Assembly (NCBI GenBank): GCA_037481815.1
Contig: JBBFKX010000001.1
Location: forward strand, 1,373-65,372
Source of the DNA: a candidate division WOR-3 bacterium
GTDB lineage: Bacteria > Hydrothermota > 32-111
Direction: 5' to 3'
Length of the DNA: 64,000 bases
Within the stretch, counting starts at the first letter, position 1; every line of letters begins with the position of its first letter. Below are positions 1,588-45,929 of this stretch, one piece after another. The translations under genes were made by a program, and so were the position numbers. The notes under the pieces are model-generated. The model did no database searches. It had not been told where the DNA came from and was given only the letters and a program-made list of their open reading frames with translations.

Positions 1588-4360
1588 TTTAAAATATATA
1601 CTCTGGAGAAACAGTATTAAGAGAGATGGGGATAAAATTTTAGGAACAATTTCTTTTGGTATAGATATAACCGAAAAAAAGAATTTGGAAAAGCAGATTC
1701 TTGAAAGTGAAGAACTTTTCAGAAAGTCGTTTAAAGAACATAACACTGTTAACCTTTTGGTTGATTCAGATACTGGAGAAATGGTTGATTTCAACGATGC
1801 TGCTTTACAATTTTATGGTTATACTTACGATGAGATGAAAAAGATGAATATAAACCAGATAAACATACTTCCAGATCGAGAGATAAAGAATAGGATGAGG
1901 GAAGCAAGGGAAAGGAAACAGAACTTTTTCATTTTTAAACATAGATTGAAGGATGGAAGGATAAGGGATGTTGAGGTTTACTCAAGAGGTTATGATTATA
2001 AAGGTAAACACTTTTTACATTCAATAATTTTTGATGTAACTGAAAAACTCGAATATGAAAATAGATTAAAAGAAACAACGGAATATTTGAAACATATTTT
2101 TGATTCTCTAACAGATGCTTTGGCTATTCATGATGAAAATTACAGAATAATTGATGTGAACAAAAAGACATGCGAAATGTTTGGTTACTCTTACGAAGAA
2201 GTTTTAAATGCATCGATAAATGATCTAAGTTATGGTAAACCACCATACTCGATGCAAGATGCAATAAAACACCTGAACGAAGCAAAAGAGAAAGGGGAAA
2301 CAACCTTTGAATGGTTTTCGAAGAGAAAAGATGGAACATTTTTTTTCTCTGAAGTAAGTATAAGGTTTGTTGAGATAATGGGGTTTAAAAGGTTTATAGT
2401 TCTTGTAAGAGACATAAGTAAAAGAAAGGAGTTGGAAAAGAGTTTAAAAGAATCAGAGGAAAGGTTAAAACTTGCACTTGAAGGAAGTGAAGAGATCGTC
2501 TGGGATCTTAATATCGAAACAGGCAAGATAGATTATTCTGAAAGGTTGAATGAGATTTTAGGTTATGATGAAAATGAGATAGAAAAAAATATTGAGCAAT
2601 GGAAAATTTTACTCCATCCTGACGATTATGAAAGTATGATTGACACTTTCAACATGTATTTGTCTGGAAGAATAGACAAATATGATGTTGAGTACAGGTT
2701 AAAAAAGAAAGATGGTGATTATGTCTGGTTTAAATCTTCAGGAAAAATTTTTGAATACAATGAACATGGTAAACCATCAAGAATGGTTGGAACACTTATA
2801 GATATAACATCGAAAAAATTGCTTGAAGAGGAGATTAAAAGAAGAGAGAGATTTTACAGGGAACTTTTTGAGTCAGCACCTGATGGTGTTTTGATCCTTC
2901 AAAATGATGTGATCATCGATTGTAACAAAAAATCGCAGGAGATTTTCGGTTTACCGAAAAAGTTTATGGTTGGAAAAACACCTTACGATCTTTCACCAGA
3001 ATATCAACCTGACAATATACTTTCAAAAGAAAAAGCAAAATACTGGATAAAAGGTGTTCTTGAAGGCGAAAATAAAATTTTTAACTGGATACATAAAAGA
3101 GATGATGGAACAAATTTTGAATGTGAAATAAGTTTAACTTTACTCGATAAAGAACAGAAGATCATACTTGCTTTTGTAAGAGATATAGATGAGAAAGTAA
3201 AGAGAGAAAAGGAAATTAAAAATCTTCAGGATCAATTGTACCAATCACAAAAACTTGAAACATTTGGAAAATTTGCAGGTGGTATAGCACATGATTTTAA
3301 CAATCTTTTAAGTGTGATAATGGCTAACGCTGAACTTTCTCTTGAAAAGGTTGAAAACGATGATCTTTTAAAAAGAAATCTTGAAACGATCGTTAATGTT
3401 GCAAACGATGGAGCAAAACTTTCAAAAAAACTTCTCATTTTTGGTAAAGAGCAGGTTGCAAATCCTGAAGTGTTAAATCTAAATCTATTTTTCAAAGATA
3501 TTATTCCTTTTTTGAAAAAACTTATCGGAGAGAATATAGAAATCTTTTTCTATCCAGAAGAGAATCTGGGGAATATTATTATTGATAGGATTTATCTTGA
3601 ACAGATCTTTATGAACCTTGCTGCAAACGCAAGGGATGCTATAGAAGGTAATGGAAAGATAATCATTCAAACAAAGGAAGTTAACCTTGATGATGAATAT
3701 GTAAAAAAACATTATGGTGTAGATGAAGGTAGATATGTGATGGTCTCCTTTTCTGATACTGGGAAAGGGATTGAAAAAGAAATAATGTCAAAAATTTTTG
3801 ATCCGTTCTTTACAACAAAAGGTGAAAAAGGTACCGGACTTGGACTTTCAGTTGTTTATGGAATAGTAAAACAGGCAAAAGGATATATAAATGTTTACTC
3901 TGAAAAAGGTGTGGGAACAACATTTAAAATCTATTTCCCATTAACTGATAAAAAAATTGAAACTTTCAAAGAGACAAAAACGGATGCTAAATTAAAAGGT
4001 TCTGGAAATAAAATCCTTCTTGTTGAGGATGAGGAGTTTTTGAGAAATGCTGTGTATGAAATATTGACAAAAAATGGATACATTGTTGATATCGCAAAGG
4101 AGGGAGAGGAAGCGCTGGAAAAATTTAGAAATAATTTTTATGACCTTGTTATCTCCGATATGATAATGCCTAAAATGAATGGACACCTTCTGTATAAAGA
4201 ATTAAAAAGTATAAGAGGTAATCTTAAAATCCTTTTTATGTCAGGATACACTGACAATGCGTTTAAAGATAATGGTATAGATCTATCAAACATACCTTTC
4301 ATTTTAAAACCGTTCAGGAGTTTTGACCTTTTGAAAAAAGTGAAAGAATTACTTGGATAA
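1571..4360 (+). CDS. C-terminal part of a hybrid sensor histidine kinase: multiple PAS domains, HisKA, HATPase_c and a C-terminal receiver. Reading-frame continuation of 724..1587; the annotated ATG ORF is 1685..4360.
   Basis: Several PAS/PAC repeats and a coiled-coil. H-box HDFNNLLSVIMANAELSL. G-boxes DTGKGI and GTGLGLS. Receiver KILLVEDEEFLRN...DLVISDMIMPKMNG. Confidence 0.75.
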   Translation, partial: RVKDGSLKYILWRNSIKRDGDKILGTISFGIDITEKKNLEKQILESEELFRKSFKEHNTVNLLVDSDTGEMVDFNDAALQFYGYTYDEMKKMNINQINILPDREIKNRMREARERKQNFFIFKHRLKDGRIRDVEVYSRGYDYKGKHFLHSIIFDVTEKLEYENRLKETTEYLKHIFDSLTDALAIHDENYRIIDVNKKTCEMFGYSYEEVLNASINDLSYGKPPYSMQDAIKHLNEAKEKGETTFEWFSKRKDGTFFFSEVSIRFVEIMGFKRFIVLVRDISKRKELEKSLKESEERLKLALEGSEEIVWDLNIETGKIDYSERLNEILGYDENEIEKNIEQWKILLHPDDYESMIDTFNMYLSGRIDKYDVEYRLKKKDGDYVWFKSSGKIFEYNEHGKPSRMVGTLIDITSKKLLEEEIKRRERFYRELFESAPDGVLILQNDVIIDCNKKSQEIFGLPKKFMVGKTPYDLSPEYQPDNILSKEKAKYWIKGVLEGENKIFNWIHKRDDGTNFECEISLTLLDKEQKIILAFVRDIDEKVKREKEIKNLQDQLYQSQKLETFGKFAGGIAHDFNNLLSVIMANAELSLEKVENDDLLKRNLETIVNVANDGAKLSKKLLIFGKEQVANPEVLNLNLFFKDIIPFLKKLIGENIEIFFYPEENLGNIIIDRIYLEQIFMNLAANARDAIEGNGKIIIQTKEVNLDDEYVKKHYGVDEGRYVMVSFSDTGKGIEKEIMSKIFDPFFTTKGEKGTGLGLSVVYGIVKQAKGYINVYSEKGVGTTFKIYFPLTDKKIETFKETKTDAKLKGSGNKILLVEDEEFLRNAVYEILTKNGYIVDIAKEGEEALEKFRNNFYDLVISDMIMPKMNGHLLYKELKSIRGNLKILFMSGYTDNAFKDNGIDLSNIPFILKPFRSFDLLKKVKELLG

Positions 4361-4372
4361 AAAATCACCATA

Positions 4373-4400
4373 TTGATAAAAAAATTAATCCTGTTATAAT
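4373..4400 (+). promoter_or_regulatory. Sigma-70 type promoter (TTGATA, 16 nt, TATAAT) for tRNA-Leu.
   Basis: TTGATA at 4373-4378 and TATAAT at 4395-4400, ending 13 nt before the tRNA 5' end. Confidence 0.6.
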
Positions 4401-4413
4401 ACACCTGATGAGA

Positions 4414-4498
4414 GTCGAAGTGGCGGAATCTGGTAGACGCGTTAGATTCAGGTTCTAATAGGGGCAACTCTGTGGGGGTTCAAATCCCCCCTTCGACA
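4414..4498 (+). tRNA. tRNA-Leu (anticodon CAG), type II with a long variable arm.
   Basis: Manual fold: 7-bp acceptor GTCGAAG/CTTCGAC, D-arm GCG..CGC, anticodon stem TTAGA/TCTAA with loop TTCAGGT (CAG), long variable arm, T-arm GGGGG-TTCAAAT-CCCCC, discriminator A. CCA is not encoded. Confidence 0.85.
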
Positions 4499-4507
4499 GA
4501 GGGGTTT

Positions 4508-7500
4508 ATGGATAAAGAAAAAGAATTTTTGAAAGCATCACTTGAATCCTTTAAAAAATATCTCCCGAAAAGAATTGTGGAAAAGATACTTTCAAATCCT
4601 TATGAGGTAAAAGTTGATTCTGAAAGAAGAGTTGTAACGGTTCTTTTTGGTGACATTTCCGGATTTACCGCATTGTCTGAACGTCTTGATCCTGAGGATG
4701 TTATCAAAGTCATAAACAAATATTTTAAAAAGATGGTCAGAATTGTTGATAAATATGGTGGTGATGTTGATAAATTTATAGGTGATGCAGTTCTTGTTGT
4801 TTTTGGAGCCCCGGTTGCACATTCAGATGACCCTGAGAGAGCAGTAAGGGCTGCACTTGAGATGCAAAAGGAGATGGAAACGATTGAACCTGTTTATGCA
4901 AAAGGTGAGTATGTTAAAGTTACGATGCATATCGGTATCAATACTGGTGAGGTTGTTGCTTTAAATATGGGTGTTGATGACAGGATGGAATATACGATAA
5001 TGGGAGATAATGTTAACCTCACATCACGACTCGAAGGGATTGCAAAATCAGGAGAAATAATAATATCTGAAAATACATATAAACATGTAAAGGATATCTT
5101 TGATTTTGAAAAACTTGAACCTGTTATGGTAAAAGGGAAAAAAGACCCGATACAGATATACAAAGTTTTATCTCTGAAAAAAGGTCTTGTTAGAGAGGAA
5201 GATTTGAAATTTGTTGGGAATGAGGATATAAAAAAATTACCTGAGGTTCTTGTTGAAAAATTTGTAAAAGATAACCAGAATTTTTCCCTTTTTATACAGG
5301 GTGATGAGGGATGTGGAAAGACGAAATATTGTTCGCTTCTTTTTGACATATTTGATAGAAAAAATGTGAAAATCTTTAAGTCAGGCGGTCAAACATTTTT
5401 TCAAAATGTTCCTTTCAAAAAACTCAAAGATTTTGTTGAAGAACAGTTAAAAATAGATGAAAGTGATTCAAATGAAACGATAAAAAACAAAATAGATAAT
5501 TTTCTTTTACCTGATGAAAGGGATGGTTTTTATCTTCTTTTTAACCTTGATGATTCTTATGATGAAAAAGTTTTTAATTTAAAAGTTTTTGAAACCTCAA
5601 AAAGGTTTCTTGAAAAATCGATTGGCTCAGATAAAACTCTTTTTTTAATAGATGATTTTGATCTTTTTGATGATCATTCAAAAAACATATTTTTGAAACT
5701 ATTAAACAATCTTTTAGAAAGAAATAATTTTTCAGTGATCCTTAGTTCAAAAGAAAATATTGATTTTAATTTTACAGATAAAGTTGTTCTGAAGTCACTT
5801 GATTTTGAAAAGTTTAATGAACTTGTTGAAATTAAAAGTTCAAAAAAATTTGACGATGAGGATCTAAAATATCTTTTCAAAAGAAGTGAAGGAAACCCGA
5901 AAAAATTTGTTGAGATCTTGAAATTTTTGAATGATAAAAATTTTCTTGAGGAAAAGGATGGTAAACTTTTCATAAAAGAGGAAGGGAAAAAAGTTATTCC
6001 CGATTCACTCAAATCGATTTTTGTTTCCAAAATAGATAGTTTAAAAGAGAATGATAAAAAAGTGATCCAGTACACTTCACTTTTAGGTTATAGGTTTAAA
6101 AAGAGTGAAGTCACACAATATTTCAATTTTTCTCCAAAAGATATTGATGAGAGTTTTAAAATTTTAACGGACAGAGGTTTTCTGGAATTTTATGATAAGG
6201 AGACATACTATTTTTCATCAGAACTTTTTTATGAATCGGTCTATAATTCATTATCTTTTGATAAAAGAAAAGCGTTACATAAAAACATTGGTGATTATAT
6301 AGAAAAAAAATCTCTTGATAAGAATGAAGAAATTTTAAGAAAACTTTCTTTCCATTATTCAAAAAGTGATGATTTTGAAAAGGCATCCTTCTACCTTGAA
6401 AAGGTTGGAGATTTAGATTCAAAACTTTTCTCATACAAACAATCTGTTGAAAATTACAACAACGCAATAAGTTTACTTCAAAAGGAAAAAAGATTTGACA
6501 GGATGATCCCGGTTGTGATAAAACTTATAAATGTGTTAATCCAGATTGGATCATTCAACAGGGCTTTAGAACTTTTAAAAGAAAAAAGAGAAGTATTTCT
6601 TTACGATGATGAGAGAGAAATAGATTATCTCCTTCTTGAGGGAATGATATACGACCGTATCGGTGATTACAATAGATCAGAAGAGATATACAAAGTAGCA
6701 TTGAAAAAATCTTTAAATTTAAAAAATAAACAGATTTTATCAAAAATCTACAATTCACTTGGAATACTTAAATCTTTTGAAGGGAAATATGATGAATCAC
6801 TTGAATATTATAATCTTTCGCTCGATATAAATATCAAAGAAAACAACAAAAAGGATACAGGTGCATTATATATTAATATAGGTAAAATATATTTAGAGCA
6901 AAACAGGTTTGATGAAGCAAAAAAATATTTTGAACTTTCCTTTGATCTTTTCAAGGAAATTGATGATAAAAAAAAGCAACTTCTTTCACTCATAAATCTT
7001 GGAACAGTTTATGATTTAACTGGGAATTATGATAAGGCAGAGAATCTTTACAAGGAAGCTTTAAAACTTTCATTACTTGTAAAAGATGAGATAGAAACTG
7101 CAAGGATCGAAAATAATCTTGGGACTATAAAATTTTTGACAGGGAAATATGATGATGCAATTACAAGTTATCAAAATTCAATAAAAATATTTGAAAGGTA
7201 TGAAGAGTTGAAGGGACTTTCAGAGATATATTCAAATATGGGGGAGATAAATTTTCTTTTAGGTGAGTTTGAAATATCAAAAGGGTATTATGAAAAAAGT
7301 TTGAACCTGTGTGAAAAAATATCACATAAACACCTTAAAACATACACCTCTCTCAATTATGCTAACCTTCTGTCGTTTTTAGGTTATCTTGAAAAAAGTG
7401 AAGAGATGATTTTAACAAACAAAGATTATATAGAAAAAAACAATCTCGTTGATTTAAAAATTATCTCTTTAAATATACTCGCAAAGATCAACGGCTTGAA

Positions 7501-8296
7501 ATCCTATCTTGAAAAGGAGAAAGAACTTGTTCTTGAAGGAGTAAACCTTGCAAAAAAATATGGAATTAAAGAACTTGAATATAACCTCTATTCTACTCTG
7601 ATAAAAACTCTGATAGAGGAAAATCAACTTGAACAGGCAAAAATTCTTGCAAATGATGTTTTAGAATATGCTGAAAAAAATAAAAATGAAATACTTGCTG
7701 CTGATGTTTTAGCGTCACTTGCAGATATCCATATTAGAACTCAGGATATCGAGAGTATCTCGGAAATATCATCAAAATCTTTTGAGATAGCACAGAAAAC
7801 CAAATCAAAACTATCACTTTTGAGAACTTATATATCACTTTCAAGATTTTATCTTTTGACAGAAGATTTTACAAGTTGTGAGGATATTTTAAAAGAGGCG
7901 GAAAAGATTGGAGAAAGTATCGGATCACTCGAACATATTTTGATAATCAGAAAGATAAGTGATGATCTCTATACGAAATTGAACAAGGATGATCTAAGGT
8001 ACATATCACTTCTTAAAGGTGTTTCGACAATCGAAAAATATATTGCTCGTGCTGGAGAGGTCAACAGAGAAAATCTTATACATAAAAGAGGTTTTATAAA
8101 TTTTTATAAACATCTTTTTAACATAATGGTAAAAATCTTTGAAGTTGATTTTATTGTTAATGTTGTGAAAGATTTTGATAACAGTATCGTTATTGAAGTT
8201 TTGAAAGATTTTTATAAAATAGAAAACATAGATAAAACAAAAATTAAAGATCTGGTAAAATTTTTTGGAGAGATTCAAGATGAAAAAATTGATTAA
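4508..8296 (+). CDS. Class III adenylate/guanylate cyclase (CHD domain) fused to a P-loop ATPase and a long TPR-repeat region: a STAND/MalT-like signalling ATPase.
   Basis: CHD signature VTVLFGDISGFTALSE...FIGDAVLVVFGAP...GINTGEVVALNMG. A central NTPase region. C-terminal degenerate TPR repeats (YNNAISLLQ..., LGTVYDLTGNYDKAENLYKEALK). The track ORF starts at 4472 inside the tRNA, so the ATG at 4508 (MDKEKEF) was chosen. Confidence 0.75.
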   Translation: MDKEKEFLKASLESFKKYLPKRIVEKILSNPYEVKVDSERRVVTVLFGDISGFTALSERLDPEDVIKVINKYFKKMVRIVDKYGGDVDKFIGDAVLVVFGAPVAHSDDPERAVRAALEMQKEMETIEPVYAKGEYVKVTMHIGINTGEVVALNMGVDDRMEYTIMGDNVNLTSRLEGIAKSGEIIISENTYKHVKDIFDFEKLEPVMVKGKKDPIQIYKVLSLKKGLVREEDLKFVGNEDIKKLPEVLVEKFVKDNQNFSLFIQGDEGCGKTKYCSLLFDIFDRKNVKIFKSGGQTFFQNVPFKKLKDFVEEQLKIDESDSNETIKNKIDNFLLPDERDGFYLLFNLDDSYDEKVFNLKVFETSKRFLEKSIGSDKTLFLIDDFDLFDDHSKNIFLKLLNNLLERNNFSVILSSKENIDFNFTDKVVLKSLDFEKFNELVEIKSSKKFDDEDLKYLFKRSEGNPKKFVEILKFLNDKNFLEEKDGKLFIKEEGKKVIPDSLKSIFVSKIDSLKENDKKVIQYTSLLGYRFKKSEVTQYFNFSPKDIDESFKILTDRGFLEFYDKETYYFSSELFYESVYNSLSFDKRKALHKNIGDYIEKKSLDKNEEILRKLSFHYSKSDDFEKASFYLEKVGDLDSKLFSYKQSVENYNNAISLLQKEKRFDRMIPVVIKLINVLIQIGSFNRALELLKEKREVFLYDDEREIDYLLLEGMIYDRIGDYNRSEEIYKVALKKSLNLKNKQILSKIYNSLGILKSFEGKYDESLEYYNLSLDINIKENNKKDTGALYINIGKIYLEQNRFDEAKKYFELSFDLFKEIDDKKKQLLSLINLGTVYDLTGNYDKAENLYKEALKLSLLVKDEIETARIENNLGTIKFLTGKYDDAITSYQNSIKIFERYEELKGLSEIYSNMGEINFLLGEFEISKGYYEKSLNLCEKISHKHLKTYTSLNYANLLSFLGYLEKSEEMILTNKDYIEKNNLVDLKIISLNILAKINGLKSYLEKEKELVLEGVNLAKKYGIKELEYNLYSTLIKTLIEENQLEQAKILANDVLEYAEKNKNEILAADVLASLADIHIRTQDIESISEISSKSFEIAQKTKSKLSLLRTYISLSRFYLLTEDFTSCEDILKEAEKIGESIGSLEHILIIRKISDDLYTKLNKDDLRYISLLKGVSTIEKYIARAGEVNRENLIHKRGFINFYKHLFNIMVKIFEVDFIVNVVKDFDNSIVIEVLKDFYKIENIDKTKIKDLVKFFGEIQDEKID

Positions 8297-13114: not shown

Positions 13115-16093
13115 ATGGACAGGGAGCAGATAGTTAAAAAATTTGTTCAATCTTATACATCCTACAAAAACAACATTGAAATATTCCATGATCTTTCAAC
13201 TTTCAAAGTCAAAGAGATTTTACTTGTTGCGACATTTTACGATGGTTTCATCCTTGAGGAAGAGGGAAGATTGGCTGAAAGAATTTTTGGGGAGTATCAT
13301 AAACTGTCCTTGCCTGATGCACCGAGAGTCACAAATGCGATAAACGGTGAAGAGGCATGTGAATGGCTGAAAAAAGAACATTTTGATATGGTTATTTTGA
13401 CTATGAGAATCGACGGAATGTCCCCCTATCAGTTGAAAGAAAAGATAAGAAGTGTGAACAGGGATATACCGATAGTTATACTTTTAAACGACAATGGAGA
13501 GATTCCATTGATCAAAGATCAACTCGAAAAGGATAAGGATAAGGATCTTGTTTTTGTATGGAATGGTGATTCAAAAGTTTTTCTTGCGATGATAAAATAT
13601 GTTGAGGACAAAAAGAATATCGAAAGAGATACTCTGATTGGAAATGTGAGAGTGATACTTCTTGTTGAAGATTCGATAAGATACATATCAAGGTACCTTC
13701 CGATACTTTACACTGAGATTCTGAAACAGACTCAGAGGTTGATAATACAGGAAAAACTTGATGATATGAAGAAACTACTCCGTTTGAGAGCAAGACCAAA
13801 AGTGATAATCGCAACGAATTATGAGGATGCGATTTTTTATTTTGAAAAATATCGAGAGAATCTTTTAACTGTGATTTCGGATATGAAATTCCCGAAAAAC
13901 AATGCGACGAACTACAATGCGGGTTATGAATTGATTAAGTTTATAAAAGAAACTATGCCGGAACTGCCCTGTCTTTTACAGTCATTTGAAAAAGAAAATC
14001 TAAAAAAAGCGAAAGAGTTAAAAGTCCCATTCATAAACAAAAACAGTGATAAATTGAGTCAGGAGTTGAGAAACTTTATTTTCAACAACCTTGGATTTGG
14101 TTCTTTCGTTTTTAAAGATAGAAAAGGAAAGGAGATAGTCAAAGCGAGTAACATTGAATCTTTCAGAAAAATTCTTTTGACGATCCCCTCAGAATCTTTA
14201 ATTTTCCATGCCAATTTAAACCAATTCTCAGCATGGCTGATGGCAAGAGGTGAAATCAAGATTGCAAAAAAACTACAAAAGTTAAAAGTTTCAGATTTTA
14301 AATCCATAGAGGACTTAAGAAAATATCTTATAGATATAACACTCGATATTGATAAGGAATCAATAAAGGGAAAAGTTGTAAAATATTCAGATAATCTAAA
14401 AAAAGATGAGGAAGTGATAGTTCAAATCGCTGATGGAACACTTGGTGGCAAGGGAAGAGGTATCGCTTTTGTAAACAATATTCTTCAGAACACTGATATC
14501 TTTAACTCTTTTGAAAATGTAAAAATAACCGTTCCTAAAACGATGCTTATAGGTTCTGAGGAGTTTTCGAACTTTATAGAAAAAAATAATCTTTCTTATT
14601 ACATTTTAAGGGAAAACGATTACAACAAATTACGAAAAAGATTTTTAAAAGGTAAACTTTCAAATGAACTTCTTTATAAGTTAAGGAAAAAACTTAAAAG
14701 TTTTACAAAACCCATTGCGATAAGATCTTCAAGTTTGTTTGAGGATTCAATCTCACAATCATTTTCTGGAGTTTTTGAAACCTATATGCTTCCGAACAAC
14801 GATGATGACTTTGAAAAAAGGATGAAGGATGTTGAGGATGCTATAAAACTTGTTTTTTCTTCCGTATTTTCACCATCAGCGAGGGCATATTTTAATGCGA
14901 TAAATTATAAGATCGAAGAGGAAAAGATGGCGGTGATAATACAGGAAGTTGTTGGACATAATTATGGAAAATACTATTATCCATCTTTTTCAGGTGTTAT
15001 GCAATCGGACAACTATTATCCGATTTCTCATCTTAAAAGGGAGGATGGAATATGTGAGATCGCTGTTGGGCTTGGAAAATATGTTATAGATGGAAACGAT
15101 TCTTTCAGGTTTTGTCCCAAATATCCTGAAATCGATATAAACATAAACAACAAAACACAAAAATTCTTTTATGCTATAAACCTTGGTGATAGAAAAAATT
15201 TTAATCTTATCGAAGGAGACAATTCGACTCTTGAACTTATAGATATAAATGTTGCAAGGGAGAATGGGAGTTTAAACTATATAGGATCTGTACTTGATGT
15301 GTTCAATGGAACTTTGACAGATGATCTTTCAGCAAAAGGTCCACTTGTGATAAACTTTAACTCAATAATTAAATATGAATATTTCCCTCTCTCAAAAATA
15401 TTAAACCAGGTGAGTGCGATTATAAAATTCGCTATTGGATCTCCATGCGAAATAGAGTTTGCTGTTGATCTGAACCCTGATGAAAACCACAGGATGACTT
15501 TTTATATCTTACAGATAAAACCTATAATCAGAAAGAACTCTGAAGTTGATGTTGACATTGAGAGTATCCCAAGAGAAAAAATCCTGTTCTTTTCCGATAA
15601 CGCTATGGGAAACGGCTTTATAGATAACATTAACGATATAATCCTTGTAAATCCAGAAAAGTTTGATAGGATGAAAAGTGTCGAACTTGTGCCCTTGATC
15701 GAGGAGATCAACAGAGATTTTGGGAAAAAGGGAAAGAAATATATTATTGTTGGACCGGGCAGATGGGGAACAAAGGATCCATTTTTAGGAATACCTGTTT
15801 TATGGTCTTCGATTTCAAATGTTAAAGTTATAGTAGAGATCGAGATGAAAGATATGTTGATAGAACCATCACTCGGCTCACACTTTTTTCATAATGTTGT
15901 AACGATGAATGTATTCTATTTAACGATTTTCAGCCATAAAAGATCGGATTCTTTTATCGATTGGGATCTTCTGTTTAAAGAAAAAAATATAAAAAAATTT
16001 AACGATATAATATTACACTTTGAATTTGAAAAACCTTTAAAAGTTTTGATTGATGGAAAGAGAGGAAAAGGCGCCATAATCAAAACCGATTAA
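13115..16093 (+). CDS. Multidomain protein: N-terminal receiver-like domains fused to a PEP-utilising / pyruvate-phosphate-dikinase N-terminal (ATP-grasp nucleotide-binding) domain.
   Basis: Receiver-like segments (ILLVEDSIRY...). A central region similar to the PEP synthase / PPDK N-terminal domain (IADGTLGGKGRGIAFVNNIL, IAIRSSSLFEDS, FSGVFETYM). RBS GGAGG upstream. Confidence 0.55.
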   Translation: MDREQIVKKFVQSYTSYKNNIEIFHDLSTFKVKEILLVATFYDGFILEEEGRLAERIFGEYHKLSLPDAPRVTNAINGEEACEWLKKEHFDMVILTMRIDGMSPYQLKEKIRSVNRDIPIVILLNDNGEIPLIKDQLEKDKDKDLVFVWNGDSKVFLAMIKYVEDKKNIERDTLIGNVRVILLVEDSIRYISRYLPILYTEILKQTQRLIIQEKLDDMKKLLRLRARPKVIIATNYEDAIFYFEKYRENLLTVISDMKFPKNNATNYNAGYELIKFIKETMPELPCLLQSFEKENLKKAKELKVPFINKNSDKLSQELRNFIFNNLGFGSFVFKDRKGKEIVKASNIESFRKILLTIPSESLIFHANLNQFSAWLMARGEIKIAKKLQKLKVSDFKSIEDLRKYLIDITLDIDKESIKGKVVKYSDNLKKDEEVIVQIADGTLGGKGRGIAFVNNILQNTDIFNSFENVKITVPKTMLIGSEEFSNFIEKNNLSYYILRENDYNKLRKRFLKGKLSNELLYKLRKKLKSFTKPIAIRSSSLFEDSISQSFSGVFETYMLPNNDDDFEKRMKDVEDAIKLVFSSVFSPSARAYFNAINYKIEEEKMAVIIQEVVGHNYGKYYYPSFSGVMQSDNYYPISHLKREDGICEIAVGLGKYVIDGNDSFRFCPKYPEIDININNKTQKFFYAINLGDRKNFNLIEGDNSTLELIDINVARENGSLNYIGSVLDVFNGTLTDDLSAKGPLVINFNSIIKYEYFPLSKILNQVSAIIKFAIGSPCEIEFAVDLNPDENHRMTFYILQIKPIIRKNSEVDVDIESIPREKILFFSDNAMGNGFIDNINDIILVNPEKFDRMKSVELVPLIEEINRDFGKKGKKYIIVGPGRWGTKDPFLGIPVLWSSISNVKVIVEIEMKDMLIEPSLGSHFFHNVVTMNVFYLTIFSHKRSDSFIDWDLLFKEKNIKKFNDIILHFEFEKPLKVLIDGKRGKGAIIKTD

Positions 16094-16148
16094 ATTTCAC
16101 TTGACAAAAATTCCCCATATGTTTTAATTTTTACAATAAGGAGGAATT

Positions 16149-16976
16149 ATGTATCAGATATTGGAACATCAAAAAATTGGTCAAAATATCCACAAACTGG
16201 TGATAAAAGCCCCACTGATCGCAAGAGAAGCAAAACCCGGACAATTTGTTATCCTAAGGTCTTATGAAAATGGAGAGAGAATCCCCATAACTATATGTGA
16301 CAAGAATCCTGAAGTGGGGAGTATTACCCTGTTTATACAGGAGGTTGGAAAATCGACAGCAAAAATTGGAAGTTTCAAAGAGAATGATTATATTCTTGAT
16401 GTTGCAGGACCACTTGGAAAACCTGCACATATCGAAAAGGTTGGAACTGTTGTTACAATAGGTGGTGGTGTTGGTTGTGCTATAACTTATCCTGAAACGA
16501 AAGCCTACAAAGAAGCAGGAAACTATGTGATCGGAATAATGGGTTTTAGAAATGTATCGTTTAAAATACTTGAAGATGAGATGAAAAATATATGTGATGA
16601 ACTTTATATCACAACAGATGACGGTTCTTATGGACAGAAAGGTTTTGTATCGGATAAGTTGAAAGAACTGATAAAAGAGGGAAGAAAAATCGATGAAGTT
16701 CTGGTGATAGGTCCTGCGATCATGATGAAAGTTGTTTCAGATATCACAAAGGAGTATGGAATAAAAACGATAGCATCACTTAACTCGATCATGGTTGATG
16801 GAACTGGTATGTGTGGTGCGTGTAGAGTTGAGGTTGGTGGAAAGACAAAATTCGCGTGTGTCGATGGTCCGGAATTTGATGCTCATCAGGTTGATTTTTC
16901 GCTTTTGATGAAAAGATTATCGATGTATAAAGATGAAGAAAAACTCTCATACGAAAAATATATTAACGAGAGGTGA
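16149..16976 (+). CDS. nfnA: Ferredoxin-NADP+ oxidoreductase small subunit (NfnA/SudB/PyrK-like; FAD/NAD-binding with a C-terminal 2Fe-2S).
   Basis: PyrK-like fold with a C-terminal Cys cluster GTGMCGACRVEVGGKTKFACVDGPEF. AAGGAGG RBS. Confidence 0.7.
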   Translation: MYQILEHQKIGQNIHKLVIKAPLIAREAKPGQFVILRSYENGERIPITICDKNPEVGSITLFIQEVGKSTAKIGSFKENDYILDVAGPLGKPAHIEKVGTVVTIGGGVGCAITYPETKAYKEAGNYVIGIMGFRNVSFKILEDEMKNICDELYITTDDGSYGQKGFVSDKLKELIKEGRKIDEVLVIGPAIMMKVVSDITKEYGIKTIASLNSIMVDGTGMCGACRVEVGGKTKFACVDGPEFDAHQVDFSLLMKRLSMYKDEEKLSYEKYINER

Positions 16977-20085
<3,109 letters not shown>

Positions 20086-20089
<4 letters not shown>

Positions 20090-21441
20090 TGGAAGAGAAA
20101 AAATATAAGATTCTTATTGTTGATGATGTTAAGGATAGTATTGAACTTGTGAGCAGGAATCTTCAACAGGCAGGTTATATAACTTTTACAGCAACTTCGC
20201 CTATAAAGGGATCCGAGATCTTAAAAAACAACGATATAGATCTTGTGATCACAGATCTAAGAATGCCTGATATAGATGGAATTGCTTTTACAAGATACAT
20301 AAAAGAGAATTATAAAAATATTGAAATCATCATGATCACAGGTTACCCATCTATAGAAAGTGCTGTTGATGCTGTAAAAACCGGTGTCAGCGAGTTTTTA
20401 CCAAAACCTTTCACGGATGATGAACTGTTTGCAACCGTTGAAAAAGTCCTTTTTAAACTCAAAATCAAAAATGTGTTAAACAAAGAGGATAAAACTAATC
20501 TACCTGTTTATCATGGAATTCTAGGTAACAGTGATAAAATGAAAAAAGTTTTTGAACTTATCAATAAAGCGTCGCAGACTTCGGCAACGGTTTTGATAAC
20601 AGGAGAGAGTGGAACAGGAAAAGAGATGGTCGCAAGAGCGATACACTATTCATCACCAAGAGCGAGTCAGAGTTTTGTTCCCGTTAACTGTGGAGGTATA
20701 CCTGAAGAACTGCTCGAAAGTGAACTTTTTGGATATGTTAAAGGATCTTTTACAGGTGCAAACGAAACAAGAGCAGGGTTTTTTCAGACAGCGGATGGTG
20801 GAACAATATTCCTTGATGAAATCGGAGAAACGAGTTTGTCGATGCAGGTGAAACTTTTAAGAGTTCTACAGGACAAAACCGTTTATATGATCGGATCAAG
20901 AAAACCACAAAAAATAGATGTGAGAGTTATCTGTGCCACGAACAAGAATCTTGAAGAACTTGTTAAAAAAGGGGTTTTCAGAGAGGATCTTTACTTCAGG
21001 TTAAATGTGATCAACATTGAAATACCTCCGTTAAGAGAAAGAAGAGAGGATATCCCATTGCTTCTTGAGCATTTTGCAACAAAATACAGCAAAGAACTTG
21101 GAAAGGAAAAACCGACTTTTACAGAAAATGCTATTAGAAGTTTAAGTGAATATTTCTGGCCAGGTAATGTCAGAGAACTTGAGAATGTTGTTCAGAGATT
21201 GATAATAATGAAAGAGGATAACATTATAGATGTGCCAGATCTTCCATCGTTGATGAGATTCAATTTACCATATAAAACAGACCTTACAAGAAAACTTTCA
21301 GAAGTTGAATGCGAATACATTAGAGATGTTTATGAGAGTCAGGGAAAGAACAAAACAAAAACGAGCGAAATTCTTGGAATAGATCGAAAAACATTGAGAG
21401 AAAAGTTAAAAAAATGCCAGATTGATAATGAAGAAGAGTAA
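20086..21441 (+). CDS. Sigma-54-dependent response regulator (NtrC/AtoC family: receiver, AAA+ sigma-54 activator, Fis-type HTH).
   Basis: Receiver ILIVDDVKD...DLVITDLRMPDIDG. Walker A GESGTGKE. GAFTGA-type motif GSFTGA. ESELFGY. C-terminal HTH TSEILGIDRKTLREKLKK. Confidence 0.9.
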
Positions 21442-21546
21442 AATCTCCCCATTGAGGAGAAAATCCCCGTTTATTTTCAGGTAAAATTATCTTTCTCTAA
21501 AGAATAAGATCCCTTTAAAAAATAACTTATATATTTTTTTGATTTC

Positions 21547-21561
21547 TGGCATACTTATTGC
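21547..21561 (+). promoter_or_regulatory. Sigma-54 (RpoN) -24/-12 promoter: TGGCAT-N5-TTGCT.
   Basis: cTGGCATacttaTTGCTtt matches the TGGCAC-N5-TTGCW consensus. Located 33 nt upstream of the ATG at 21594 and 106 nt downstream of the NtrC-like gene. A direct repeat GAGtAAAATCtCCCC / GAGaAAAATCCCCG at 21436-21469 may be the upstream activator site. Confidence 0.7.
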
Positions 21562-21593
21562 TTTATTAGTTGGTAAAAAGAAAAGGAGGTCTT

Positions 21594-21908
21594 ATGATGA
21601 CGATAAAAGAAAGAATCGAAAAAAAGAAGGAAACAGGTTTAAAGAATTTTGAAGGACTCTGTGTAACATGTAAAAATAGCAAAACATGTATCTTTCTTCA
21701 GAATTCAACAAAATCAATCATCAGTTGCGAGGAGTTTGAAAATATTGAGACAGTGGAAAAAACAAAAGATGATTTAAAAGAAAATCTTGTTTCGAAAGTT
21801 AAAGGATACGATCTAAAAATAGGTCTTTGTGCAAACTGTGAAAACAAAATCGATTGCAAATTTGAAAAACCTGAAAGTGGTGTCTGGCATTGTGAAGAAT
21901 ACAGATGA
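21594..21908 (+). CDS. Small cysteine-rich protein with an internal tandem duplication of a 4-Cys motif (putative zinc-ribbon-like protein).
   Basis: Two repeats, C-x2-C-x5-C-x11/12-C-EE(F/Y): CVTCKNSKTCIF...SCEEFE and CANCENKIDCKFEKPESGVWHCEEY. AAGGAGG RBS at 21581-21587. The track ORF starts at an upstream in-frame Met at 21570. Confidence 0.55.
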   Translation: MMTIKERIEKKKETGLKNFEGLCVTCKNSKTCIFLQNSTKSIISCEEFENIETVEKTKDDLKENLVSKVKGYDLKIGLCANCENKIDCKFEKPESGVWHCEEYR

Positions 21909-21914
21909 TGTTCT

Positions 21915-23144
21915 ATGGATATTTTAAACTATTCTTCTTACCTTGAAGATGATGATCTTTTAAGAGTAAAGGGATTCAGAGAATTCATCGATAAAACAAC
22001 TTTTGATAAGGATATGCGCGCTATCCTTATCAGACCATCAAAGGTCGTTAGAAACTCTGAACATATTTTAAATGAAAACCAAAAGTTAACCTTGAAATCA
22101 ATATTCATAAAGCATAACTTTTTAAATGACACCGATGTGACTTCACTTTTCTTTGAGAAAGAGGAAGATTTTGAAAATTTATTTTTGCAATCTTTTTACT
22201 CTTCTTTAAAGTATTCGTTTCTCGATATCCCTTTTGGTGGCTCTACACTCGGGTTAATTTTACATGAAAATTTAAATTTATATGATGAAAAGGTAAAGAG
22301 AAAGTTGGGATCACTTCTTGTAAAAAATTTTTCGGAGATACTTGATGAACAGAACTATTTAAAAATCAAGGACTATGAAGAAGAACGAAAGGATTCGATA
22401 GTAAAACTTATTGAAAATCTTGATAGACCAAGAATATCAAAAAGGTTGAAGTTCCTTTTGAAGAACCCTTTGAGAAAAAAAATAGTGAAAGAAAAATATG
22501 AACTTATATGGTTAAAAAGTTTGGTCAAATACTTTTTTAAAGGAAACAGGGTGAGGGTTATCATAGATACGATAAACAAAAGATCTCTTGAATTCTTAAA
22601 GGAGATGGTAAAAGATGAATTTTTTGTTGTTGTTGGAATAGGTTCAAAAGATTATTCCTATTATTCTTCAAAGGGTATTGACTGGAACGACATGAATATC
22701 ATCGAAAATATGGGAAACTCTCAAAACTCTATTGATTATACTGACCTGTTGAAAAAAGAAACTGAAATATTTTTAGAGTTTGGTTCAAATTATAATTTCA
22801 ATGAAACGATGTCCAAACTTGTCAACTGTCGTATTTTTGGTGAATTTGAAGATCTCTCAACATCTTTTCAGAGTATTAAAAATTTAACCAACAGAAAAAT
22901 AATCTATCTTCCATCATTACTTCTTGATTCTGTTGATCAGATTTTCGATTATTTTGAGATAATCGAAAGAAAAAGGGAAGAGATAATGAGTGTGGATGAA
23001 ATAGAATTAAGGTTTGAAACATATATCAAGTTTGTTCTGTCCTACTTTGATTCTTTTCTTGAAGACGAGCAAAAAGTGTTTGAAATCTTTTTGTCAAGAG
23101 CGTTTGAAAATTACAGAAGAAAGTTTTCTCTTGTTTACGGGTGA
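21915..23144 (+). CDS. Hypothetical protein, 409 aa; possible very divergent Glu/Leu/Phe/Val-dehydrogenase-like fold.
   Basis: No clear motifs. Weak resemblances to GDH: FLDIPFGGSTLGLIL vs [12 protein letters not shown], and FFVVVGIGSKDY vs VAISGFGNVAWG. Tightly linked to the next gene in the sigma-54 operon. Confidence 0.4.
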   Translation: MDILNYSSYLEDDDLLRVKGFREFIDKTTFDKDMRAILIRPSKVVRNSEHILNENQKLTLKSIFIKHNFLNDTDVTSLFFEKEEDFENLFLQSFYSSLKYSFLDIPFGGSTLGLILHENLNLYDEKVKRKLGSLLVKNFSEILDEQNYLKIKDYEEERKDSIVKLIENLDRPRISKRLKFLLKNPLRKKIVKEKYELIWLKSLVKYFFKGNRVRVIIDTINKRSLEFLKEMVKDEFFVVVGIGSKDYSYYSSKGIDWNDMNIIENMGNSQNSIDYTDLLKKETEIFLEFGSNYNFNETMSKLVNCRIFGEFEDLSTSFQSIKNLTNRKIIYLPSLLLDSVDQIFDYFEIIERKREEIMSVDEIELRFETYIKFVLSYFDSFLEDEQKVFEIFLSRAFENYRRKFSLVYG

Positions 23145-23148
23145 AAAT

Positions 23149-24354
23149 ATGGTTGAAGAAAAAGTTCTAAAAGAAAAATCAAAAGATTTAAACATTCTTG
23201 AATCATTTTTAAATGATTTGAACGAAAAGGAAAAAGAACATTTATTGAATCTTCTAAATTATAAAGAAACATATGTGAACATACCTTTAAAAGGTGCAAA
23301 TGGTGATTTTAAAAATATAACAGGTGTTAAAGTGGATAATTTTTTGGTTTATAACGACACATTTTCTAATCTTAGAATTCATCCATATTTTGATATAGAT
23401 TACTTTAAACGGTTTTCACTCTTGAACACAATAATGTTCTCACTTTTTGAAATTCCAGTAAATGGAAGTTTCTCATCTATTCTTGTTGATCCTTTCGATT
23501 TATCGATCGAAGAGAAAGAAGAACTTTTTAAAATGTTTTCTTCTCTTTTAAAAAATGAAATTCCAGAAAAAAATTATTTTTTCTCTTCAGATCTAAACTC
23601 AAATTTGAACGATTTAAAAATTTTCTGTGAATCGTTTCATTATGAAGATAAGGATAGAAAAAGAATGATAAGTTTTGTTGACCAATACAGTGATATAAAA
23701 AAAGAGATAGATGTTGAAAGGATAAATGAAATTTCCACTTATTATTCGATAAAAAAATTCTGTGAAATCAAAAGAAAAAATTTTGATGAACTATCTGTTG
23801 TTGTTTATGGATTTGGAGAAAAGCCCTGCTATCTTTCAAAAATGTTAAGAAAGGAAGGTTTTAACATCGTTGGAATTTTGACACATCAGGGTTCTTTCTA
23901 TGATCCTTACGGAATTGAAATCGATGAATTTTATAAAAATTATCTTTCAAGTTCCCCGGACAAAAATGAAACAAGATACAAAAAAATAGATCTTTATACA
24001 TTTGAAAACATCAGATCGGATATCACCATTTTCTATATAGATCTTTTTAAAAAGGATTTCTTAACTAATATAAACACATCCTTGGTAGTTGAAGGTCGAA
24101 GGATGATATTTACAGATGAAGATTTTCTGATGATGAAAAATAAAGGTGTTGAATGTTTGCCCTGTGAATTCACATGCTCTGGAGAGATACTCCTTTATGA
24201 TGAACTTAGGAAGAACAGGATTCCGAAAAAAGTTGAAACGATGATCCAGAAGGAGATCTATCATAAAATCGATCAGATCTTTGCCTTTGAAGGTGAAGAT
24301 GTTAAATCAAAGATTATTAAAATTGCTTTAAGAAATATTCTTGAAAATTTTTAA
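23149..24354 (+). CDS. Degenerate glutamate-dehydrogenase-like protein, 401 aa (ELFV-dehydrogenase N and C domain signatures present but lysine-containing active-site motifs substituted).
   Basis: GVKVDNFLVYNDTFSNLRIHPY aligns to [24 protein letters not shown] with the K lost. IPVNGSFSSILVDPFDL aligns to [16 protein letters not shown] with the K lost. VVVYGFGEKPCYLSKMLRKEGFNIVGILTHQGSFYDPYGIEIDEF aligns to VAISGFGNVAWGAAIKANELGAKVVTLSGPDGYIYDPDGV (Rossmann). Start at MVEEK (GTGAAAAT ATG); the upstream in-frame extension from 23014 overlaps the previous gene and was rejected. Confidence 0.55.
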   Translation: MVEEKVLKEKSKDLNILESFLNDLNEKEKEHLLNLLNYKETYVNIPLKGANGDFKNITGVKVDNFLVYNDTFSNLRIHPYFDIDYFKRFSLLNTIMFSLFEIPVNGSFSSILVDPFDLSIEEKEELFKMFSSLLKNEIPEKNYFFSSDLNSNLNDLKIFCESFHYEDKDRKRMISFVDQYSDIKKEIDVERINEISTYYSIKKFCEIKRKNFDELSVVVYGFGEKPCYLSKMLRKEGFNIVGILTHQGSFYDPYGIEIDEFYKNYLSSSPDKNETRYKKIDLYTFENIRSDITIFYIDLFKKDFLTNINTSLVVEGRRMIFTDEDFLMMKNKGVECLPCEFTCSGEILLYDELRKNRIPKKVETMIQKEIYHKIDQIFAFEGEDVKSKIIKIALRNILENF

Positions 24355-24378
24355 GAAACGCTCATATACCTCAAAAAA

Positions 24379-24408
24379 GAGGGGAGAGTTTTTAACTCTC
24401 CCCCTTTT
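24379..24408. terminator. Bidirectional rho-independent terminator between convergent genes.
   Basis: GAGGGGAGAG-TTTTTAA-CTCTCCCC stem-loop flanked by an A-tract on the left and a T-tract on the right. Confidence 0.7.
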
Positions 24409-24432
24409 CCAGAACGATTTAAAAATAAATTT

Positions 24433-25850
<1,418 letters not shown>

Positions 25851-25870
25851 AACTTAAAACTTTTAATCCC

Positions 25871-25898
25871 TTGACTTTTAATTTTAATGGTGTAAAAT
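25871..25898 (+). promoter_or_regulatory. Sigma-70 type promoter for gdhA copy 2 (TTGACT, 16 nt, TAAAAT).
   Basis: ccTTGACTtttaattttaatggtgTAAAATacc, 40 nt upstream of the AGGAGG RBS and the ATG at 25939. Confidence 0.55.
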
Positions 25899-25938
25899 AC
25901 CGCTGTTTTTACAAATCAAATATATTCAGGAGGATAAA

Positions 25939-27279
25939 ATGAATAGTTATGTTGCACAGGTAATAGAAGAAGTAAAACAGAGATACTTCTGGGAAAAAGA
26001 GTTTATTCAGGCGGTTACAGAGGTTTTAGAGTCCCTATCACTTGTTATGGATAAAGAACCGAAATACAAAAAGTACAGGATTCTTGAAAGAATCGTAGAA
26101 CCGGAAAGAATAATATTCTTCAGAGTTCCATGGACGGATGATAAGGGAGAGATCCATATCAACAGAGGTTACAGGGTTGAGTTCAACTCAGCACTTGGTC
26201 CTTACAAAGGAGGACTGAGATTCCATTCTTCTGTAACACTTTCAATTCTAAAGTTTTTGGGATTTGAGCAGATTTTCAAAAACTCCTTGACAGGTCTTCC
26301 AATGGGTGGTGGTAAAGGTGGAAGCGATTTTGATCTCAAAGGAAAATCTGAAGGTGAAGTTATGAGGTTCTGTCAGTCATTTATGACCGAACTTTATAGA
26401 CACATCGGTGCTGATACTGATGTCCCGGCAGGAGACATTGGAGTAGGTGCAAGAGAGATTGGATACATGTTTGGACAATACAAAAGATTGAAAAATGAGT
26501 TCACAGGTGTTTTGACAGGTAAGGGCTTAAACTGGGGTGGTTCTTTGATAAGACCTGAAGCAACAGGATTTGGTGTTGTCTATTTTGCAGAAGAGATGTT
26601 GAAAACGAAAAAGGATTCACTTGAAGGAAAGACTGTTGCGATCAGTGGTTTTGGTAATGTTGCCTGGGGTGCTGCAATAAAAGCGAATGAACTGGGTGCA
26701 AAGGTTGTGACTCTCTCAGGTCCTGATGGATACATCTATGATCCGGATGGAGTGAAAGGCGAAAAGATAGATTATATGCTTGAGATGAGAGCAAGTGGAA
26801 GGGATTGTGTGAAAGATTATGCTGATAAATTCAAAGTGAAATTTGTTGAAAACAGAAGACCATGGGAAGTTAAAGTTGATGTCGCACTTCCTTGCGCAAC
26901 CCAGAATGAGATCGATGGAAACGATGCGAAAACATTGATAAAGAACGGATGCAAATGTGTTGTTGAAGGTTCAAATATGTCCTCAACACCTGAAGCAGTT
27001 GAAGCATTCCTTAACAACAATATCCTTTACTCTCCAGGCAAAGCATCTAACGCAGGTGGAGTTGCAACAAGTGGTCTTGAGATGTCACAGAATTCGATGA
27101 GATTACAGTGGCCAAGAGAAGAAGTTGATAAGAGGTTAAGAGAGATAATGGTAAAAATACATCAGTCATGCGTTGATGCAGCAAAAGAGTATGGAACACC
27201 TGGAAACTATGTGAACGGAGCGAATATCGCAGGATTTAAGAAGGTCGCAGATGCTATGATCGATCAGGGTGTTGTATAA
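25939..27279 (+). CDS. gdhA: NADP/NAD-specific glutamate dehydrogenase (copy 2).
   Basis: [49 protein letters not shown]. Confidence 0.9.
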   Translation: MNSYVAQVIEEVKQRYFWEKEFIQAVTEVLESLSLVMDKEPKYKKYRILERIVEPERIIFFRVPWTDDKGEIHINRGYRVEFNSALGPYKGGLRFHSSVTLSILKFLGFEQIFKNSLTGLPMGGGKGGSDFDLKGKSEGEVMRFCQSFMTELYRHIGADTDVPAGDIGVGAREIGYMFGQYKRLKNEFTGVLTGKGLNWGGSLIRPEATGFGVVYFAEEMLKTKKDSLEGKTVAISGFGNVAWGAAIKANELGAKVVTLSGPDGYIYDPDGVKGEKIDYMLEMRASGRDCVKDYADKFKVKFVENRRPWEVKVDVALPCATQNEIDGNDAKTLIKNGCKCVVEGSNMSSTPEAVEAFLNNNILYSPGKASNAGGVATSGLEMSQNSMRLQWPREEVDKRLREIMVKIHQSCVDAAKEYGTPGNYVNGANIAGFKKVADAMIDQGVV

Positions 27280-45918: not shown

Positions 45919-45929
45919 GGAGGTTGATT

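Follow-up and report, generated by a model that had tools for sequence, protein, structure and literature searches.

Why should a bacterium with two complete glutamate dehydrogenase (GDH) genes carry, directly beside them, two further genes for GDH-like proteins that lack the catalytic lysine? The question is raised by a 64,000-nucleotide stretch of DNA from a candidate division WOR-3 bacterium (contig JBBFKX010000001.1 of assembly GCA_037481815.1), hereafter the window, in which we analysed two adjacent open reading frames (ORFs) on the plus strand, ORF1 (21915..23144) and ORF2 (23149..24354), encoding proteins of 409 and 401 amino acids (aa), respectively. A sequence-only reading had placed both ORFs at exactly these positions and had described the ORF2 product as a catalytically degenerate GDH-like protein under sigma-54 control, with weaker echoes of the same fold in the ORF1 product. 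Our analysis indicates that both are homologues of the Glu/Leu/Phe/Val dehydrogenase (ELFV) family and that both have lost the catalytic lysine while remaining under purifying selection. We propose, as a tentative reading to which we assign a probability of roughly 45%, that ORF1 and ORF2 form a non-catalytic, GDH-like hetero-oligomer which senses or regulates the glutamate/NADP(H) node.

ORF2 has the GDH fold and has lost the catalytic lysine

ORF2 passed the thresholds of both Pfam domains of the ELFV family, PF02812 over residues 41-162 with 38.2 bits (cut-off 25.3; E 1.4e-9) and PF00208 over residues 198-263 with 24.7 bits (cut-off 23.4; E 2.3e-5), the latter match covering only the first 66 model positions. 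A profile of its nine-member family aligned over the full length with Bacillus subtilis GudB (7mfm/3k8z, E 1.4e-17 to 5e-17) and also matched the Pyrococcus GDH structure (E 3e-14), and comparison with a GDH profile by hhalign gave a probability of 99.8% over 355 columns (E 1.6e-27). The AlphaFold model of ORF2 (predicted local distance difference test score, pLDDT, 75.7; predicted template modelling score, pTM, 0.81) superposed on hexameric GDHs with template modelling (TM) scores of 0.78-0.80 (Foldseek E 4e-24), the scores running from 0.74 to 0.81 when some 50 solved chains of such enzymes are taken together; the top fold match was PDB 7mfm (GudB). The ELFV fold assigned to ORF2 by the sequence-only reading is thus borne out by profile comparison, by Pfam and by structure prediction. 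The ATG at 23149 is the start codon in all homologues, which begin with MVEEK and are 399-402 aa long.

Residues were mapped on a multiple alignment with gdhA2 of the window as the reference and are given in C. symbiosum numbering, in which we take K125 to be the catalytic lysine of the GGxKGG loop, and K89 (GPxKGG) and K113 to be the lysines that bind the substrate carboxylate. To our knowledge, no ELFV enzyme works without K125. In ORF2 this residue is replaced by F108, in PVNGSFSSILVD, a position that holds F or Y in all nine family members, and K89 is replaced by F72, in the segment NDTFSNLRIH. The sequence-only reading had reported the loss of these two lysines (those of GGGKGG and PYKGG); the third, K113 of FKNSL, is lost as well, its place being taken by M96 at a variable position. 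D165, by contrast with the lysines, is retained as the invariant D148. In the nucleotide-binding region the register of the beta-alpha-beta unit is kept, with the loop GFGNVA changed to GFGEKP, the last residue of which is an invariant proline, and with YDPYG as the counterpart of YDPDG; the end of beta-2 is formed by T245-H246. The pairings of the K89 and K125 segments, of GFGNVA with GFGEKP and of YDPDG with YDPYG are those that the sequence-only reading had proposed. Invariant residues of the ORF2 family crowd the segments that line the GDH cleft, where they occupy 46 of 86 positions compared with 60 of 315 elsewhere (Fisher p 9e-10), and in IVGIxTHxGSFYDPYGI 15 of 17 positions are invariant.

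ORF1 is a second, more degenerate GDH homologue

Tests that used ORF1 as a single sequence failed: there was no Pfam ELFV match and no Pfam threshold was passed, its family profile gave E 0.33 against one gdhA sequence, and BLASTP of ORF1 against ORF2 returned a match of only 33 residues. The homology is visible only with profiles on both sides. When the family profile of ORF1 was compared with the PDB, the only significant matches were GDHs (3k8z, E 4.3e-6; 3k92, with 22-364 aligned to 26-377), and an hmmsearch of 1.84 billion representatives returned 21 matches, with all 10 of the full-length ones that were checked being ELFV dehydrogenases. By hhalign, ORF1 aligned with the GDH profile over 346 columns with a probability of 99.2% (E 9.7e-20), a value that carries a mild selection bias, since the ELFV proteins that make up that profile had initially been picked up by searching with the profile of ORF1. 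The profiles of ORF1 and ORF2 can also be aligned in register over 223 columns (E 5.6e-5). The weaker echoes of the fold noticed in ORF1 thus reflect real homology.

In ORF1, K89 is replaced by V75 and K125 by T111 (T, I or S in the family), leaving K99, the equivalent of K113, as the sole lysine kept. The GxGxxG nucleotide loop is missing, with DTINKR in its place, and the equivalent of D165 is not conserved. Judged by these aligned residues, ORF1 is more degenerate than ORF2. Since the catalytic and substrate-carboxylate lysines have been replaced, neither protein is predicted to be able to run the ELFV dehydrogenase reaction.

The pseudo-GDHs belong to another GDH class than the neighbouring enzymes

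Two authentic gdhA genes lie alongside, as the sequence-only reading had stated. One, gdhA1 (24433..25779, minus strand), encodes an Escherichia coli-type GDH of 448 aa when read from the ATG behind GGAGG; the other, gdhA2 (25939..27279, plus strand), encodes a GDH of 446 aa. Both are complete, match the two Pfam domains with E ~1e-93 and ~1e-52, have every motif intact and share 70% identity. They are transcribed divergently from conserved sigma-70 promoters, TTGACT-17-TATAAT for gdhA1 and TTGACT-16-TAAAAT for gdhA2 (11/12 and 10/12 consensus matches, respectively). One difference between the two is that gdhA1 reads SGSGNVS...LSDSNG where gdhA2 reads SGFGNVA...LSGPDG.

The pseudo-GDHs, in contrast, resemble the GDH class of ~420 aa that comprises GudB, RocG and the archaeal enzymes (E 1e-17), whereas their gdhA neighbours belong to the E. 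coli-type class of ~450 aa. The match of the pseudo-GDHs to the E. coli-type model NCBIfam PRK09414 reached only E 0.04, and no E. coli-type structure was found among their PDB matches. Their identity to any GDH is only about 16-20%. On these profile similarities, the pseudo-GDHs descend from the hexameric class of ~420 aa, and we rejected the possibility that they are recent duplicates of the adjacent gdhA genes because the GDH class differs. They are also transcribed separately from the gdhA genes.

ORF1 and ORF2 are under purifying selection in one WOR-3 lineage

Ratios of nonsynonymous to synonymous substitution rates (dN/dS) were calculated for the window against one relative at dS of about 0.4-0.6. 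We obtained 0.08 for ORF1, 0.14 for ORF2 and 0.056 for the small protein encoded upstream of them (described below), compared with 0.015 for gdhA1 and 0.004 for gdhA2. ORF1 and ORF2 are under purifying selection that is much more relaxed than that on the gdhA genes. Relative to the most distant locus the pseudo-GDHs are 43-45% identical, while gdhA is 90-93% identical; that the pseudo-GDHs evolve much faster than their neighbours fits a lost catalytic constraint. The two proteins diverge in step, with ORF1/ORF2 identities between loci of 90/87, 70/68 and 43/45%, which together with a spacing of only 2-5 nt between their genes across loci is consistent with the two being stoichiometric partners. 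Both frames are intact in 5 of 5 species representatives and in metagenome contigs, and each family has more than 100 invariant columns.

The distribution is very narrow. Pseudo-GDHs of this kind were found in 5 of 185,579 species representatives, all from one WOR-3 lineage and with identical gene order, and the trio of small protein, ORF1 and ORF2 is confined to those five; the distribution of the ORF2-type protein, which the sequence-only reading had left as a point to check, is therefore that of a single lineage. This lineage is present in samples from oil reservoirs, hot springs and digesters. Among 5.8 billion proteins the ORF2 family comprises 11 clusters and the ORF1 family 8. A first scan of metagenomes for loci with a different gene context found none, and a scan with a back-translated GSFYDPYG pattern returned two contigs, one of them equal in length to the contig recorded for family member P0006; the scans added no locus with a demonstrably different context. 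Searches of the literature on GDH pseudoenzymes, and on WOR-3 together with GDH, turned up nothing on these families.

Two side observations concern the wider set of sequences. Four metagenomic GDH homologues among the matches of the hmmsearch with the ORF1 profile, P0023, P0027, P0032 and P0033, have strong Pfam ELFV matches and have lost the catalytic lysine (GGSFGG, GGGAGG, GGGIGA and GGAMGG, respectively, for GGxKGG), P0023 and P0027 also being without K89, so pseudo-GDHs may be more widespread than this lineage. Contig DYMB01000012.1 (locus L014), labelled 'Acetofilamentum sp.', a Bacteroidota genus in the NCBI taxonomy, carries a WOR-3-type locus whose ORF1 is 100% identical to that of locus L001 (GCA_973313645.1); the organism label of this metagenome-assembled genome looks wrong, unless it is a GTDB-style name that happens to coincide with one used by NCBI.

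A predicted sigma-54-dependent operon joins the pseudo-GDHs to an eight-cysteine protein

ORF1 and ORF2 are preceded by a small ORF (21594..21908, plus strand), whose start at 21594 follows the ribosome-binding site (RBS) AAGGAGG. Upstream of it we identified a -24/-12 element of the sigma-54 type, TGGCATACTTATTGC (TGGCAT-N6-TTGC; 21547..21561, plus strand), with one mismatch to TGGCAC-N5-TTGC. The element is located ~35 nt 5' of the first ATG of the operon and 105 nt downstream of the end of a gene for a sigma-54 activator. Its TGGCA and TTG do not vary across five loci, in which the pseudo-GDHs themselves have diverged to 45% identity, and the dedicated promoter and RBS are conserved across loci. 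Some 85-105 nt upstream of the -24 element, two copies of the direct repeat AAAATC[T/C]CC lie 20 nt apart (21440..21468, plus strand). The repeat is kept in loci L007, L005, L008 and L001 and is a candidate enhancer (upstream activating sequence, UAS) at which the activator could bind.

In the window the stop codon of the small ORF is separated from ORF1 by 6 nt and that of ORF1 from ORF2 by 4 nt, and in the locus most distant from the window the small ORF overlaps ORF1. The promoter element, the gene spacing and the adjacent activator gene together define 21594-24354 as one predicted sigma-54-dependent operon. The sigma-54 control proposed by the sequence-only reading thus stands as a prediction, with a conserved element directly downstream of the activator gene. 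This transcription unit is set apart from the gdhA genes by an intervening GC-rich hairpin (24380..24404), a terminator shared between the convergent ORF2 and gdhA1, by the opposite orientation of gdhA1 and by the sigma-70 promoters of both gdhA genes.

The first gene of the operon encodes a soluble protein of 104 aa that belongs to no Pfam family. Its eight cysteines fall into two GLCxxCx5C...C repeats and its C-terminus, VWHCEEY, is invariant; we presume that the protein binds a metal or an Fe-S cluster. Its family comprises 8 clusters among the 5.8 billion proteins. Two distant relatives (L003, 145-486; L004, 1159-1446) are encoded directly 5' of NuoE-like (2Fe-2S_thioredx) and NuoF-like (Complex1_51K) genes, and one of them directly 3' of a sigma-54 activator gene. 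The cysteine-rich protein is therefore not tied to pseudo-GDHs. It goes together with NAD(P)H/Fe-S redox modules, and its gene may repeatedly take the first position in redox operons under sigma-54 control.

The operon lies within a conserved block of signalling and redox genes

The block spans 13115-27279 and contains, in order, a PPDK_N protein, a SudB/SudA pair, a histidine kinase, the activator, the intergenic region, the 104-aa ORF, ORF1, ORF2, the hairpin, gdhA1 and gdhA2. The G+C content is ~30% across the window and 0.28 in ORF1/ORF2, below that of the neighbouring genes. Proteins identical or nearly identical to those encoded here are annotated at source as coming from a WOR-3 metagenome-assembled genome. 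At the head of the conserved locus in every related genome stands the gene for a 992-aa protein (13115-16093) with a receiver domain, DUF5752 and PPDK_N, the last being ATP-grasp-like and phosphoenolpyruvate (PEP)-utilising. It is followed by the SudB/SudA pair (NfnA/NfnB, of the 'GltA-type NADPH glutamate synthase' family; 16149..18380, plus strand), for which PRK06222 scored 418 bits and TIGR01316 611 bits, both exceeding the NCBIfam cut-offs. This pair is syntenic in all related loci and sits directly 5' of the kinase gene, with which the SudA-type gene overlaps, suggesting that an NADP(H)-linked oxidoreductase is co-transcribed with the two-component system predicted to control the pseudo-GDH operon.

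The sensor histidine kinase (18371..20089, plus strand; HisKA and HATPase_c) has an uncharacterised N-terminal sensor region of ~340 aa and is kept in all related loci. It contains no hydrophobic 19-mer scoring above 1.6 that would mark a membrane segment, and the signal that it senses is therefore predicted to be intracellular. Its gene overlaps that of the response regulator (20086..21441, plus strand), which has a receiver domain (Response_reg), an AAA+ sigma-54 interaction domain (Pfam Sigma54_activat, E 2e-72) and a Fis-type helix-turn-helix (HTH) domain (HTH_8) and which presumably activates the downstream operon.

Two further gene clusters were observed elsewhere in the window. At 724-8296 lies a dense signalling cluster, in which a 5TM-LYT/PAS protein is encoded together with an 891-aa hybrid histidine kinase that has multiple PAS domains and with a fusion of an adenylate/guanylate cyclase with tetratricopeptide repeats (TPR; 1274 aa). 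At 42575-48829 lies a type III restriction-modification-like system, with a Res helicase of 898 aa that ends in an endonuclease domain and an N6/N4 DNA methylase of 621 aa.

A proposed non-catalytic hetero-oligomer and its alternatives

In the mechanism that we propose, the adjacent cytoplasmic histidine kinase and the sigma-54 activator would switch on the operon 21594-24354, which would yield the small eight-cysteine protein and two translationally coupled, GDH-derived proteins. ORF1 and ORF2 would then assemble into a GDH-like hetero-oligomer without catalysis. ORF2, with its conserved cleft and recognisable beta-alpha-beta segment, would sense the ligand, either a dinucleotide or a metabolite, while ORF1, having lost the nucleotide segment, would serve as a structural or docking partner. 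Through protein-protein contacts the complex could modulate the glutamate/NADP(H) node encoded nearby, with GdhA1/GdhA2, the two-component system or the NfnAB-like oxidoreductase as its target.

Several observations weigh against this proposal. The AlphaFold model of ORF1, made from 8 close sequences, is of low confidence (pLDDT 46), so that its only strong structural matches, which are GDHs, lend weak support to the GDH fold of ORF1. The conservation of the ORF2 cleft segments may in part reflect the folding core, and it would be just as compatible with a new catalytic activity. A purely regulatory model leaves the role of the cysteine-rich protein unexplained, and the distant relatives of this protein adjoin NuoE/NuoF-like redox genes rather than GDH-like genes. 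Finally, all loci come from one narrow lineage in which gene order is fully conserved, so the linkage to gdhA and nfnAB may be inherited and not functional.

That the cleft is the most conserved region of ORF2 makes an enzyme with a new function a serious rival, albeit one that we consider unlikely. A GDH scaffold would in that case have been refitted for another reaction or substrate, with the eight-cysteine protein as an electron carrier, metal donor or substrate and with D148, N150-S151-N152, T245-H246 and the family-specific RYKKID motif as candidate cleft residues. The predicted co-transcription of the cysteine-rich protein gene in all cases, and the position of its distant relatives in front of NuoE/NuoF-like Fe-S flavoprotein genes, would fit such an enzyme. 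However, dN/dS values 5-35x those of gdhA and an identity of 43-45% between loci would be unusual for a tight active site, ORF1 is without any nucleotide loop, and scans with Pfam, NCBIfam and PADLOC found no known catalytic motif of another family. The absence of a PADLOC match also led us to reject a role in a defence system. A further account is decay, in which ORF1 and ORF2 would be non-functional remnants of duplicated GDH genes heading for loss, and the lost catalytic residues, the fast evolution and the lower GC content (0.28) all point that way. However, the intact frames in every genome, the more than 100 invariant columns per family and the conserved promoter and RBS make this account very improbable, and the dN/dS of 0.08-0.14, far under 1, led us to reject the pseudogene reading.

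The proteins might instead act inside the active enzymes, with ORF1 and/or ORF2 mixing into GdhA1/GdhA2 hexamers and tuning their activity or allostery. Two gdhA genes adjoin the pseudo-GDHs in every locus, and of the Pfam domains matched by ORF2 it is the N-terminal one, responsible for oligomerisation, that is best preserved. The gdhA and gdhB genes of Thermus are close paralogues in one operon, and an arrangement of the Thermus type would be expected to show similarly close paralogy and co-expression with the catalytic subunit. This is not what we see: the size class differs and no E. coli-type structure is matched significantly, identity to any GDH is low, and a different promoter type and a terminator before gdhA1 separate the transcription units. 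Mixed GdhA hexamers are less likely because the GDH class and the transcription unit differ, and despite the precedent of GdhA/GdhB in Thermus thermophilus (PMC9570180; bioRxiv 10.1101/2025.10.31.685773), we regard them as distinctly unlikely here.

Beyond the regulatory hetero-oligomer of ORF1 and ORF2 that we favour, one can imagine a broader scheme that we hold to be speculative and rather improbable. In it, the eight-cysteine protein would join ORF1 and ORF2 in a machine of a kind not described before, for which a dead GDH provides the scaffold. This machine could sense redox state or a metabolite and gate the NADPH/glutamate node by docking onto GdhA or the NfnAB-like enzyme, or it could be a new enzyme whose catalytic residues have been relocated inside the old cleft and which is fed electrons or metal by its cysteine-rich partner.

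Were the regulatory reading true, the locus would provide a clear example from nature of how an enzyme scaffold can be turned into a regulatory device with its own two-component/sigma-54 switch, and it would extend the precedent of Thermus GdhA to two subunits, one of them without even a nucleotide loop. The homology itself provides a functional lead for ORF1, which is annotated only as 'hypothetical'. Metabolic reconstructions of WOR-3 genomes could mistake ORF2 for a third GDH, given its automatic name 'Glu/Leu/Phe/Val dehydrogenase dimerization domain-containing protein'. Restriction of the genes to a single uncultured lineage limits the impact.

Comparison with known systems

Compared with canonical ELFV dehydrogenases (PF02812 plus PF00208), the pseudo-GDHs share the two-domain architecture, the order of secondary structures and the length. 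Unlike them, both lack the catalytic lysine and have lost substrate lysines, with only K99 retained in ORF1, and ORF1 has neither a glycine-rich loop nor a match above a Pfam threshold. The closest solved relatives of ORF2, both by sequence (E 1.4e-17) and by fold (Foldseek E 4e-24), are GudB/RocG of B. subtilis, which are protein-binding 'trigger' GDHs. GudB, unlike ORF2, is fully active and keeps all of the lysines. Its active-site cleft is the docking site for glutamate synthase in the GudB-GltAB counter-enzyme complex (bioRxiv 10.1101/2021.04.12.439528; PDB 7mfm); the WOR-3 locus differs in having no large glutamate synthase subunit and only a small-subunit homologue of the SudA/NfnB type.

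Regulatory pseudoenzymes derived from amino acid dehydrogenases have been described in Thermus. The hetero-hexameric GdhA-GdhB GDH of T. thermophilus contains GdhA as a subunit that has no catalytic activity and serves regulation (PMC9570180; bioRxiv 10.1101/2025.10.31.685773; PDB 3aoe). Compared with GdhA, the WOR-3 system has two pseudo-subunits instead of one, a far greater divergence from any GDH, a size class unlike that of the neighbouring active GDHs, predicted separate sigma-54 transcription and a cysteine-rich companion. The alanine-dehydrogenase-like pseudoenzyme (ADLP) of T. thermophilus has its catalytic lysine replaced, yet NAD(H) is still bound and the protein regulates another enzyme (bioRxiv 10.1101/2025.10.31.685773). 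ORF2 resembles ADLP in its derivation from an amino acid dehydrogenase and in the replaced lysine, and a cofactor-sensing regulatory partner is the mechanism that we propose for it. The parent family is ELFV and not alanine dehydrogenase (AlaDH), and the NAD(H) binding demonstrated for ADLP is conjectured for ORF2, at GFGEKP. The system that we propose is thus of a known kind, the regulatory pseudoenzyme derived from an amino acid dehydrogenase, and is set apart by its pair of highly degenerate subunits and its dedicated sigma-54 switch.

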